The notes under the pieces are model-generated. The model was not told where the DNA came from. It worked only from the letters and a program-made list of their open reading frames with translations, and ran no database searches. From the NCBI GenBank assembly GCA_050613775.1, contig JBODTK010000015.1, forward strand, positions 62,001 to 126,000: 64,000 nt of DNA, written 5' to 3'. This document shows positions 38,920-46,547 of the stretch, in pieces. A program made the translations under genes and the position numbers. The number at the start of each line of letters is the position of its first letter. The stretch's first letter is position 1. The stretch comes from Neocallimastix sp. 'constans' (taxonomy: Eukaryota).

Positions 38920-39869
38920 CTTGAGTTTTAGAGGGGGCATCATGGTAAAGAATGAATTAATAACCTTTATTTTATTATTAATAATTCTTTACTAAATTGT
39001 ACTTTCCTATATTCTTGATAACCTAAACTTAATAATAAAATTTAATTTATTTTGATATAAATTAATTTTAACTTGTATATAATGTTAAATCAATTTTAAT
39101 TAATTACTTTATTGTTATATTATTAAATATATGTATATATTAAAATACAATTGTAAATATTAAAATTATACTTTTAAGATACTAAATTATTAAAACTATT
39201 AATTAAATATTATTATAAAAATTTATTTATTATAACTATTAAATATTATTATAAAATTATTAAGATTATTAAATTTATTATTAAAAATTATTATTAAAAA
39301 TTATTAATTATTATAAAAATTTATTATTTAAATATTATCAAATTTATTAATTAAATATTATAAAAATTTTATTTTATTTTTGAAAATAATTACAAGTATT
39401 ATTTAAAATAATTAAAGATTATTAAATTTATTATATTAATCCTTAAAAACAATTTATTAAACTTAAAAATATCAAAGAAAATAGTAAAAACTATTTTCTA
39501 TATATTTACTTTATAATAATTTCTAATTAAATTATATTTGAATATTATATTATTATATTTATAAAAATTAAAACAAAAATGAATTATTAATATAAAATTA
39601 ATTCAATAATTCTATAAAATTACTTAAATTTTAAACAAATAATTATACTTTAAATTTATAAAAAAATATAAATATTGTAACAATTTCTTAAAAATTAAAT
39701 ATATGTACTTCAAAAATAAATTTTAATATTAATAAATAATTAATAAATAATTAATAAATTTTAATAAAAGAAATTTTTTTTTTATAATTTAAAATCAAAG
39801 CAGGGTAATACCCTTCCCCCATGCTTTATTTTAAATCTATACGTGCTAACCCCGAGTCTACCATCAATG

Positions 39870-40675
39870 TGTAAAGAATTAATTAAAAATATTTAATTAT
39901 ATTAATAATTAATTATTTCTACAATTAATAATAAAAAATATTATTAATTGAGATAAAACTAAAAAATATAATATAAAAATTTGAAAACAAGAATTTAAAA
40001 ACTTAGAGTTTATAATAAGATTATAATAAACAACACTAAAAGTAAGTTAAGAGTATTTTAGAAATTATTTTATTATAAAAATTTTTTATTAAAAGTAATT
40101 TTAAAATATTTGTGTTAATTATTATAATTTCTTATAATATTATATTAATTTGATTTCTAATCTTGGAAAATTATCTCTATCTAGAAAAAGATTAGAAGAA
40201 AACACTAGATAGATCTCGATTGGTGTTTAATTACATCAATCTTTAGTTAATAAGAAAACCCGAATAAGGGAGAAAACTTATTAACTAATTATATATTAAT
40301 TTTATTAATATTTAATCACAAGTATAATTAAATAATTAATTCTTTTAATTTTCTTAATTAAAAGTCCAAGAAATAATATAATTTAATTATTTCTTGATTA
40401 AATAAAATTATCATTTTAATACAATTTAATTTTTCTTAATTAAATAGAATTTATCATTATTTTAATACAATAATACATTATTATAATTTAATATATTAAT
40501 TATTGATAATTTAATTTAATGTAAATAAATTTTAAAACAATAACATTAATTAATAATTACTATGTGACATAATTAATAAAATTATTCATAAAATTTTATA
40601 AAATAATAAACTTTAAATATTAATTTTTTAATAAAGAATAATAATTATTTTGAAAAATAATTATAATTCTTTACA
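39870..40675 (-). repeat. Solo LTR related to element 5 LTR
   Basis: TGTAAAGAATT...AATTCTTTACA; TSD CAATG on both sides. Confidence 0.88.
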
Positions 40676-40678
40676 CAA

Positions 40679-41164
40679 TGATACGTGACCACTATAAATA
40701 TGATATTTAGGTATTTTCTTTAGGTTAAAGAAATACTTAAATATTATTAGACAATAATAATTTTAGAATAATAATTATTAAACGGAGAATTCTTTTATTT
40801 ATAAGTTTATACTTATGATAAATTAATTCACATAAATAGCTATTTTTATATTTTATTTTAGTATAGTTAAAGAGAGATATTAATGTTTTATTATATTTAT
40901 TGATTAATAAATTAGATGAATATATATATTTGAGATAATTAATTACAATATTTATATAAGAGAATAATAATAATAATTAATGTAATAATTAATAATTAAT
41001 AATAATTAAAGAGAACATTCAAAAGATATATTTATTACTTTATTTTGTATTATTGTATGTGTTATTTCTGTTTAATATTAGAATATATTATTTTGTCATA
41101 ATTCCTTACTGTCATTGCCCATAAATAAATATTAATTTAGATACATAAATAAAATATCGTATCA
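40679..41164. repeat. Solo LTR (TGATACG...CGTATCA)
   Basis: 7-bp terminal inverted repeat; followed by TCAA. Confidence 0.85.
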
Positions 41165-41170
41165 TCAATG

Positions 41171-42729: not shown

Positions 42730-43845
42730 TGATACGGGGTGTCACTAAATACCTTGTATTTCCTATTAAATACTCTTAATAATAATAATAAAATAAAAAC
42801 TATTATTAAATCTTATTATTAAAATCTTTTATTAATATCAAATATAATAAAAATTATTATTAAATATTCTTATAAATTTCTTTTATTAATATTAAATATA
42901 GTAAAAATTATTATTAAATGTTCTTTTATTAATATCAAATTTAATAAAAATTATTATTAAATATTCTTATTAAAATCTTTTATTAATATCAAATCTAATA
43001 AAATTTATTATTAAATATTCTTATAAAATTCTTTTATTAATATTAAATATAATAAAAATTTTTATTAAATATTCTTATTAATATATTTTATTAATATCAA
43101 ATATAATAAAAATTATTATTAAATATTCTTATTAAATATTCTTTTATTAATATTAAATATAATAAAAATTATTACTAAATATTCTTATTAAAAACTATAT
43201 ATAATTTAAATCATTACTAATTCTTATTTTTATATTAAGAATAATAAAAACCTATTTCAATAAATATTTGATATAAAATACAGAATTATAAGTTTCTGTA
43301 TAATATTTTCTAAACATTTGAAATAAACTAAAAATAAAACAAAAATCAAAAATAAATTAAATCTTTATTAAAATAAAAATGAACTAAAATACAGAAGAAT
43401 TTCAATGATAAAAATGATCTAAAATACAGAAAATATCAATTCTGTATAATTCTCTCTCTGAAAACAATATCAAGAAGAAGCTACCGCCCGGAATGCCCTT
43501 CGTGATACAAGCTCCAAATTAATTTTTTATATTTTAATTTAATAAATGTTATTTTTTTTTTAAAAAATAATTTAAAATAATAGTTAAAAATTAAAATAAA
43601 ATAGTTATAATAGTTTTTTTTTATAAAGAATATATTAATAACAAATAAAATGTATTAAAATAAAAGTATAAAAAGAAGAATAAATTTCTTTCTTTTTAAT
43701 ACTTGGAACAAATAATTTTAATTTTAAATTTAAATAAAGAATATTTTAAAATTTAATTTTTTTCTTGTTTCCAAATTTATTTTTATAGTTAATATTTATT
43801 TTTTTTGTTTTGAATATCTTAGTGTTTCAACCCCAGCCCGTATCA
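42730..43845 (+). repeat. Solo LTR (TGATACGGG...CCCGTATCA) with internal ~45-bp tandem repeats
   Basis: 9-bp terminal inverted repeat; TCAA on both sides. Confidence 0.88.
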
Positions 43846-43851
43846 TCAATG

Positions 43852-44820
43852 TGTAAGAATCTATAATTATTTTTAAATAAAATAATTATATTTTCTTAGT
43901 TAAAGTTATAATTATAACTTTATTTAATTATATAATATTTATTCATTTAAATATTTTTAATAATTAATTTAACACAATATTAAATATTCATTAATTTAAT
44001 ATAACAAAATTTATTTATTTAATTATTATTTATACATTTATAAATAATTATAGTTTATTTAATTATACATTTAATTATTAAATTTATTAGTCTTAGTTTA
44101 TTTATTTAATTAAATTGTAAACAAGTATATTATGTATTATAATATGTATTTTAATAATGTATTCTGTATTTTGTTTATTAATATCATTATTATGTTTATT
44201 ATGTTATTATCCTTATTTGTAAATTTATGATTTTATGATCGAAATATTTTTTATTATTTTATTCTTTTATTTTCAATCAATTACATTAGATTAGCGAATC
44301 GGTTAATTAGGGTTTTTCCCAATTACTTCTTAAAAGTAATTGGTTTTACCTAATTGATACGCTGATCGATACGGATAGAATATCGATCAAAAATCTTATC
44401 TAGTTTTTCTCTCTAATCTTTTCCTAGATAAGAGATTTGTTAAGATTAGAAAACATTTTTTAATTTAACCTTATTTTTCAAAAAAGTATAAATAATGCTC
44501 TTGAATTCTCTTTGAGAAATCAAGAGTTATTATTATAACAATTATAATATAGTAATAGCATTAATAAATATTTTATATTTCTATTTTAATAAAGTTAGTT
44601 TCAATAAAACAAATTTAAAAATAAAATAAAATAAAATAATCTTTTCTCTTTGACTATTCTGTGTTATTAGTTTATTATAATTAGTTATAATAAACTCTTT
44701 CCTATAGAAGATAAGTATATTTATCTTTTTTGCTTTTTCAATTTAAAAATAATTATTATTTAGTTATTAAGTTGTAGTTAATAATTTAATTATAATTAAT
44801 TTTATAATTAAATTATTACA
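43852..44820 (+). repeat. Solo LTR related to element 5 LTR
   Basis: TSD CAATG; TATA box followed by CTCTTGA...TCAAGAGTTATTAT. Confidence 0.9.
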
Positions 44821-44823
44821 CAA

Positions 44824-46547
44824 TGATGAAGAATGAAATTATAAAATCAAATATTATAATAAAATTTATTTAAAAATTAAATTTTAACCTTAAATAAGAT
44901 TAAATTATCTGAACCTTAAATAATTCTGCTTTAATAATATTAAAATTAAAAATCAATTACGATCTTCTAGAAAAATTGTGTTTCTAGAAAAAAGAAAAAT
45001 ATTATAATAATTTTAAAAGATAACTTTTAATAATCTTGTTTTTATCAACGATATAATTTCTTTATTTTCTTTATTGTTATTCTTTTATTTCTTTATTATT
45101 CCTTTATTTCTATAATAAAACATAATTATTCTTTTATTTCTTTTAATATAATATATTTATTCTTTTATTTCTTTTAATATAAAAATAAATATTTATTCTT
45201 TTATTTCTTTTCTTATTAAAATTATAAATACCTTAAATTCGTGTAAAAATATAAATACTTATAAATATTTCTTTTAATTATTCTTCGTTGTTATTAAATT
45301 ATTAAATTAATAAAATAATAAATAATAACAAAAATAAATAAATAAAATAAATTAGATAATTATTTAATAAAAATTAATAAAGATAAATAATAATTATTTT
45401 ACATTATAATTAAATAAAAAAATAAAATGAAACAGTTTAATAAAATTATAGATTTTAGTTATAATTTAGAATAGTTTAGTAATATTAGAATAGATTAATA
45501 GTAAAAATAATTTATTCTTTAAAATTATTATAATAAATAATTAATAATTAATAAAAATTTATTTTATATAAAATTATTATAAATAAAGTTAATAATAAAA
45601 ATCTAATAGTAAAAATTTAATAAAATATGAAGATTGATAATTCATTTAGTGTATAATTATTAATTCAGTTAATAAAAATAATTTATAATTATTAGAATAG
45701 TTATTAAACTAGGAAATAATAATAAATAATAATAAATAATAATAATAAAAAGTAATAAATAATAACGAATAATAATAAGTAATAATAAATAATCATAGAT
45801 AATAATTAATAAATAAGAAGATATAAAATACTTTTGATAAGCAATTACTGTTAAAGTTTTGTGATAATTTGGTCTTAACGATTAGGTCAAGATGCCAAAT
45901 TATAGTAATTAATTAATATTTTAAATTTACTCTTATTTAAAACATATTATTATTAGTAAATTTTATAAATAAGTTTTATTTAAAATATAGATTTTATTTA
46001 ATCTTAATAATATTTTATTACATTATTATTTTATATAATTATTACTATAATTTAAATTACAATAATCCTACAAAGGATTAATCAAAAGATTTAAACATGT
46101 ATTTATATAAAATAATTAATTAAATATTAATTATTAATATGAATATGTAATAGCATTAATAAAAGTTTGATATTGATAATATAAACTAAGATAATAATAT
46201 AAATATTTAATATAAATAAAATATAAGAATCTAATATAGCTAAATATTATATTTTATAATTAAAATATAATATGTAGAAATTAATTTAATATGACAATCA
46301 CGTGTTTAAATTATTTAATATATATTAATTTCAATATTTTAATAATATTTAGTCAATTAGTTGGCCTAGACTATTTCCTAAATATTTTAATAATAATTAT
46401 TATATTATTAATTATTAATATTGAAACTCAAATAACTGAATTATTGAAATTGAAATTGAAATTGAATTAAATGGAAATTCAATTATTATCTTAACAATTA
46501 CCACTTTTAGGATATTTCTAAATTAAGGTAATTGTTACATTTTGTCA
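44824..46547 (+). repeat. Solo LTR (TGATG...TTGTCA) with a nested LTR
   Basis: End resembles the reverse complement of the 49549 start; TATA motif like the element 2 LTR; flanks TCAA/TTTA do not match. Confidence 0.65.
45849..46496 (-). repeat. Nested solo LTR of the element 6 family
   Basis: TSD ATTAC; reverse complement matches parts of 61546-62552. Confidence 0.9.

Follow-up and report, generated by a model that had tools for sequence, protein, structure and literature searches.

Positions 39,864-44,825 of the 64,000-nt stretch of Neocallimastix sp. 'constans' contig JBODTK010000015.1 analysed here (the window) are occupied by a stack of solo and broken long terminal repeats (LTRs) of Ty3/gypsy retrotransposons. 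Our analysis makes it probable that this stack, in which two lineages take part, was built by repeated insertion upstream of a transfer RNA (tRNA) gene, with guidance from RNA polymerase III (Pol III). One lineage includes elements 1-4 and carries tRNA-type primer-binding sites (PBSs); the other, the TGTA family, has LTRs of the form TGTA...TACA and includes element 5. The window has a G+C content of 19.8% and holds five Ty3/gypsy coding regions (elements 1-5) and three tRNA-Met-type genes. The stack, named below after CAATG, the target site duplication (TSD; 5 bp) of its TGTA members, has the following parts.

38943..39863, forward strand: 3' LTR of element 4 (lineage with tRNA-type PBS), from comparison of its two LTRs
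39865..39869: left copy of TSD CAATG (right copy 40676-40680)
39870..40675, reverse strand: TGTA-1, solo LTR distantly related to that of element 5 (core match, E 8e-11)
40679..41164: solo LTR TGATACGTG...CGTATCA with 4-bp TSD TCAA, from its junctions
41171..42085, reverse strand: TGTA-2, solo LTR with TSD CAATG (41166-41170, 42086-42090), from its junctions and a match to the element 5 LTR
42089..42161, forward strand: incomplete copy of LTR start 42730, joined to a purine tract
42162..42721, forward strand: TGTAAAAGG LTR, likely a 3' LTR, without left TSD and followed by GCTTTCAA; 93.3% to the copy at 24204
42730..43845: unit TGATACGGGG...CGTATCA with 4-bp TSD TCAA, possibly composite inside, from its junctions
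43852..44820, forward strand: TGTA-3, solo LTR with TSD CAATG (43847-43851, 44821-44825), from its junctions and a match to the element 5 LTR

An exact CAATG flanks each of the LTRs 39870-40675, 41171-42085 and 43852-44820, which lie in reverse, reverse and forward orientation, and it consists of the CAA of TCAA plus the TG of the adjoining LTR. The left and right 12-mer junction patterns occur three times each and in none of 100 shuffles. These data bear out an earlier note on this DNA, which had described three TGTA...TACA LTRs with TSD CAATG alternating with LTRs that have the 4-bp TSD TCAA. The kinship with the element 5 LTR, claimed there for all three, is clear for 41171 and 43852 (local scores of 368 and 427, where shuffles reach at most 97 and 107) and distant for 39870, which shares one core of ~75 bp (E 8e-11, with a profile built without 39870) and has a whole-LTR score of 149 against a shuffle maximum of 131. 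The TGTAAAAGG LTRs are followed, as had been read, by GAATT-TCG (24760) and GCTTT-CAA (42722); GCTTT is not verified as a TSD of LTR 42162, the left flank of which is a purine tract. The junction checks on the stack concern the assembled sequence; a read check covered only the element 5/tRNA junction, which no listed contig bridges by 31 bases on each side.

Distances, counted upstream of the tRNA gene, come from three tRNA genes elsewhere in the window and the insertions next to them.

7741..7813, reverse strand: tRNA-Met-like gene, anticodon TAT, heading the GCTT stack
7826..18501, forward strand: GCTT stack (element 2, LTR 15153-16194, element 16201-17647, 5' LTR of element 3)
24120..24192, reverse strand: tRNA-Met gene, heading the TTCG stack
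24204..24759, forward strand: TGTAAAAGG-family solo LTR, 5-bp TSD GAATT at -7..-11 of tRNA 24192
24764..31934: TTCG stack, with TTCG (-11..-14) before the LTR starts 24768, 25859, 26389, 31148 and 31935
31007..31143, forward strand: 3' end of a TGTA-family LTR (profile search, E 0.0024; aligns with other TGTA ends)
56978..57050, forward strand: tRNA-Met gene, with the TSD of element 5 at -15..-11

All 11 scored insertions at these genes, two of them of the TGTA family, have TSD edges at -7..-15, inside a narrow window of ~5-20 bp upstream of the tRNA, and each of the three genes has an LTR 11-15 nt upstream. The scored set comprises TGTAAAAGG-a, the solo LTRs 24768 and 25859, the left end of element 4, the 31143 end, element 2, LTR 15153, element 16201, element 3, element 5 and the neighbour of element 5. 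The broken-end copies 26389, 27830 and 29413 were left out, and the register of older insertions is a reconstruction after removal of the younger ones on paper. At tRNA 24192, TTCG is the two-sided TSD of two solo LTRs and stands ahead of three more starts (26389, 31148, 31935). Three registers are found at tRNA 7813, where families differ by up to 3 nt: -9..-12 for element 2 (TSD GCTT) and, in the same place, for LTR 15153-16194 (flanks GCTT/ACTT, one mismatch); -11..-14 for element 16201-17647 (TTCA); and a distal edge at -15 for the 5' LTR of element 3. At tRNA 56978, the TSD CAGAA of element 5 lies at -11..-15 and the edge of its neighbour at -13. CAGAA is made of the CA of the neighbouring LTR plus GAA, which is the mirror geometry reported before; read away from the tRNA, the junction is N/NNN/TG, as in the CAATG LTRs. 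One 4-mer repeats within each locus regardless of the LTR beyond it (TTCG five times; TCAA before four LTR starts), which agrees with a position determined from the side of the tRNA. Moreover, no fixed target word exists, since TSDs vary by locus (GCTT, TTCG, TCAA, TTGA, GAATT, CAGAA).

We propose that the integrase of each lineage would dock on the Pol III initiation complex and cut between -7 and about -16, the exact place depending on family and locus. A new insertion would land beside the tRNA gene and shift older ones outward, and recombination between LTRs, as in established Ty3 biology, would afterwards leave solo LTRs. LTRs all begin with TG; a 5-bp cut that extends 2 nt beyond a resident TCAA/TG junction would therefore give CAATG on each occasion, and the alternation would result from subsequent 4-bp insertion at TCAA. 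Candidate tethers might be TFIIIB, as for Ty3, or TFIIIC, as proposed for DGLT-A. Given that neither lineage has room for a chromodomain, the contact would have to differ from that between the Ty3 chromodomain and Brf1.

Several observations weigh against Pol III-guided insertion as the origin of the stack. No tRNA gene adjoins the CAATG stack or lies within 12 kb of it (the nearest in the window are at 24192 and 56978), and the distance of its three TGTA LTRs to a tRNA can thus only be inferred. One window and one tRNA type form the whole basis, and registers are given relative to the tRNA gene and not to a mapped Pol III start. The TGTA copies 27830 and 29413 have no scorable junction, the former lying inside another repeat, and every scorable TGTA insertion abuts a resident LTR end. 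Nine other contigs from three sequencing runs yield loose-end consensus rows without a readable tRNA or TG junction (agreement 0.56-0.67). Finally, L010, from outside the window, is ambiguous and may represent a relative that lies within a disrupted coding sequence, at a distance from any true tRNA.

L010 is the only relative among four viral and six metagenome matches to the LTR core pattern, the other nine of the ten being chance matches. It shares the self-priming pair formed by the PBS and LTR of element 5. A tRNA-like remnant in L010, 16 nt from TGTAAG, would fit the register; it is called by neither Rfam nor ARAGORN, three LTR starts are possible, and it was left uncounted. Positions 880-1017 of L010, which lie next to or within LTRs, hold a degenerate tRNA-like sequence; it has a T run and motifs resembling an A box and a B box. 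A second LTR motif had one viral match, not accepted as a relative, and viral contigs searched with integrase and pol yielded no relative. The tRNA-Met pattern had no match in viral contigs and one in genome contigs, on an uninformative contig of 51.5% GC.

It is unlikely that only the tRNA-primed lineage targets tRNA genes while the TGTA lineage recognises a resident LTR end, through the NNN/TG step or proteins there, and so arrives at tRNA genes indirectly. Among the copies examined, none of the TGTA insertions is at an empty tRNA site, and a resident LTR end is overlapped in all five scorable window copies and in one contig of sequencing run X1, but such overlap in occupied stacks is explained by geometry alone. 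Its extent also varies (1 nt at 31143 as against 2 nt in the other four copies), whereas the distance to the tRNA is equal at both loci having one, and TGTA LTRs abut at least four different LTR families.

Under Pol III-guided insertion, the repeated CAATG needs no sequence preference, because any resident LTR supplies the TG. The fixed 2-bp offset between the lineages that had been put forward is not sustained. The offset is 2 bp in four of the five scorable window copies, three of the four coming from one site sequence, and 1 bp in the fifth, where the TGTA end 31143 is immediately followed by TTCG and an LTR start. This end would lie at -11..-15 if its TSD, the left copy of which is lost, has 5 bp; it is a single, weakly scored case. 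In the run X1 contig, the end of the element 5 LTR is followed by CAT+TG and an LTR-like start. Element 5, by measurement, and the 31143 copy, by inference, share -11..-15, and one base of the offset is simply the 5-bp as opposed to the 4-bp stagger. The best reading is that registers depend on family and locus, within about 1-3 bases, and this replaces the fixed rule. A strict version, in which each lineage has one exact register and the two lie 2 bp apart, is very improbable: it accounts for the 2-nt overlap in four window copies and the run X1 contig, but meets 1 nt at 31143 (a weak profile match), three registers at tRNA 7813 and the shared site sequence of three of the agreeing copies.

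The three CAATG LTRs are independent insertions and not parts of a duplicated composite, because TGTA-2 and TGTA-3 are inverted and indel-rich relative to each other (91.5% alike, 32 alignment blocks), TGTA-1 is far more distant, and the three LTRs beyond them start differently from one another. Tandem duplication of a single composite unit, which the earlier note had named as one finding that would overturn its view, or an assembly artefact is extremely unlikely as the source of the alternation, even though the 42089 fragment matches 42730 in a join resembling a duplication and element 4 is chimeric. Element 4 (31935-39863) has mismatched flanks, TTCG on the left and TCAA on the right; its LTRs, 96.9% alike, are no nearer to each other than each is to solo LTR 24768 (96.8% and 97.2%). 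It is likely a recombinant of two insertions. The fragment at 42089, which repeats the start of unit 42730 and is joined to the purine tract and the TGTAAAAGG LTR without left TSD, indicates that at 42089-42162 two alleles, or two paralogues, of the stack have likely been joined. The CAATG stack may have lost its tRNA gene via recombination of element-4 copies at two tRNA loci. Such recombination and the allele join would account for the lack of a tRNA there. The suggestion that each family has its own cut position holds, as family dependence, near tRNA genes, and is unmeasurable for the three CAATG LTRs.

The elements show the Ty3/gypsy domain order of protease, reverse transcriptase (RT), RNase H and integrase, with TG...CA LTRs and a TSD. 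Two separate lineages are confirmed by the RT phylogeny that had been called for. Elements 1-4 share 53-81% RT identity with one another and 39-41% with element 5. A tree of 60 of the 242 RT domains places elements 1-4 together with 18 relatives in one group (support 99), and element 5 with seven relatives in a separate one (support 99), nested among chromodomain-bearing chromoviruses in a 31-row group (support 99), mostly with PF00385. One clade for both groups is rejected with a p-AU of 0.0004 (26-row tree, groups delimited after the first tree). The PBSs of elements 1-4 and 16201 begin with TGG, the tRNA type; priming by the targeted tRNA-Met was rejected, the five PBS sequences having no complementarity to its 3' end. 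Elements 1-2 end ~50 residues past GPY/F. Ty3 (7q5b) is the best solved-structure match for both lineages, and a vestigial Ty3-like chromodomain was rejected since the C-terminal tails are too short in both.

Element 5 has the following parts.

50968..56962, forward strand: element 5, chromodomain-less chromovirus, TSD CAGAA; open reading frame (ORF) 51692-55939; 3' LTR 55935-56962
50968..51099: left end of element 5, a 132-bp palindrome of the LTR 3' end, no whole LTR
51100..51111, forward strand: self-priming-type PBS, 12/12 complementary to LTR 56654-56665

The complementarity of PBS and LTR fits the self-priming implied by the earlier description of a Tf1-like element, and the LTR stretch 56654-56665 sits 35 nt behind a TATA box, a self-priming layout. 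Among six window copies, the self-priming LTR motif is kept at 12/12 in four and 11/12 in one, and is lost in 39870. At the left end, 128 of 132 bases match their own reverse complement and the last 66 are identical to the 3' LTR end; TSD and PBS are intact despite this palindrome, which could have arisen as an aberrant end of the cDNA or by folding back at a later time, or be an artefact of assembly. A chromodomain at the integrase C-terminus is absent in all 17 clade members inspected (element 5 and P0001-P0016), in line with what had been said of element 5. These proteins end ~17-30 residues past the SH3 motif (11 rows measured from anchors, six by eye), element 5 itself 26 residues past the HPVFH motif of the SH3 domain. 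In anchored sister rows this tail is 81-127 residues long and includes a chromodomain, except in one short gene model with 41. We infer a secondary loss of the chromodomain in the element 5 clade.

Targeting of tRNA genes is known from other systems, described here from excerpts of the cited papers. Tj1 of Schizosaccharomyces japonicus, a Tf1-related, self-primed Ty3/gypsy element with a 5-bp TSD, placed 13 of 17 new insertions directly upstream of tRNA genes, 5-11 bp from the mature tRNA end (PMC4600332). The novelty of convergence implied by the earlier note was therefore overstated. The TGTA family resembles Tj1, as excerpted, in its self-priming type, 5-bp TSD and sites upstream of tRNAs. 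Tj1 lies at 5-11 bp, always in tRNA direction, and has a stop after gag, whereas the TGTA family lies at -11..-15 in both orientations (three run with the inferred tRNA direction and one against it) and has a single ORF. Tf1, Tj1 and Ty3 are outside our RT tree, and the likeness of element 5 to Tj1 and Tf1 is one of features. Ty3 of Saccharomyces cerevisiae inserts with nucleotide-level precision at the Pol III start with a 5-bp TSD (10.1101/2021.07.27.453949, PMC5911963), its vestigial chromodomain contacting Brf1 (10.1101/2021.07.27.453949); unlike in Ty3, there is no room for a chromodomain in either of our lineages and most TSDs of the tRNA-primed group have 4 bp.

DGLT-A of dictyostelids inserts ~15 bp upstream of tRNA genes, with several families per genome (PMC5006619, PMC6101501), and a tether formed by RNase H and an N-terminal extension of the integrase binding Tfc4 has been proposed (PMC6101501). 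By description, it shares with our tRNA-primed elements the tRNA-type PBS, a CCHC gag and a short integrase tail without chromodomain, but its hosts belong to another kingdom. In dictyostelids tRNA targeting is reported to have evolved at least six times (PMC5006619). The excerpted part of a review lists Ty3, Tj1, Tca8, Tyl3, Tyl6 and DGLT-A, all ascomycete or dictyostelid (PMC5911963). Chromovirus clades, including the Tcn1-like chromodomain-bearing fungal group, are treated in PMC2864245. The element 5 clade nests among such fungal chromoviruses, the nearest groups being ~50% identical, and has lost the chromodomain that these keep in their C-terminal tails. A full-text literature search, which left subscription journals mostly outside, found no report of tRNA-targeted elements in gut fungi. 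Thus, the principle of tRNA start-site targeting, including by a self-primed element, is already published; the host group and the use of common sites by two chromodomain-free lineages are new.

We tentatively put forward a wider reading, which in our judgement falls a little short of an even chance. Start-site targeting of tRNA genes may have arisen twice more in anaerobic gut fungi, independently of Ty3, Tj1 and DGLT-A: in a tRNA-primed clade that cuts with a 4-bp stagger, and in a clade of self-primed chromoviruses which turned to tRNA genes as the chromodomain was lost. Tethers would be other than the Ty3 chromodomain-Brf1 contact, and the stacks would record family-specific single-base footprints on one Pol III complex. 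The range of such targeting, so far ascomycete yeasts and dictyostelids, would come to include a likely early-diverging, repeat-rich fungus. A chromodomain-less clade beside chromodomain-bearing sisters offers a natural comparison of domain loss and target switch, and several families at common sites allow registers to be compared without experiments. Orpsp1_1 gene models are among the named relatives of both lineages, and element 5 words are present at 0.75-0.82 in 14 DNA runs, 11 of them labelled feces metagenome, which makes an anaerobic gut fungus the likely host.

Other features of the window were noted. Elements 2, 16201, 3 and 4 all run away from the tRNA, and three of four TGTA elements run with it. 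Element 1 (732-6985) has identical LTRs (638/638) and TSD TTGA; it would be a very recent insertion, and its tRNA would lie left of the window. The gene at 7741-7813, paralogous to tRNA-Met, has the anticodon TAT, and its acceptor stem contains two mismatches; a very young element, with LTRs 99.9% alike, is nonetheless found at it. G-A-A stands at -13..-11 in each of the three tRNA flanks (7800-7830, 24190-24210, 56960-56977), in two after reconstruction; that the conserved G at -13 marks the Pol III start is a guess.

A repeat of ~600 bp lies downstream of each tRNA-Met gene (6986-7740, 57051-57973, 59986-60561, 23460-24119). In three of the five spacer copies examined an LTR starts exactly 20 nt past the landmark TTCAGA, the remaining two being truncated, which suggests a tandem tRNA-Met array in which each spacer end is the upstream site of the next gene. 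A stop-free frame of 273 codons without Pfam match spans 62557-63378. The self-priming stretch of element 5 (56628-56660) is part of a hairpin that is stable (z -3.65) and is found again in several TGTA LTRs. Lastly, a repeat of ~2.2 kb with a 14-bp tandem array is present in two inverted copies, 26425-29416 and 46549-48791 (91-93% alike), one of which breaks into the TTCG stack.

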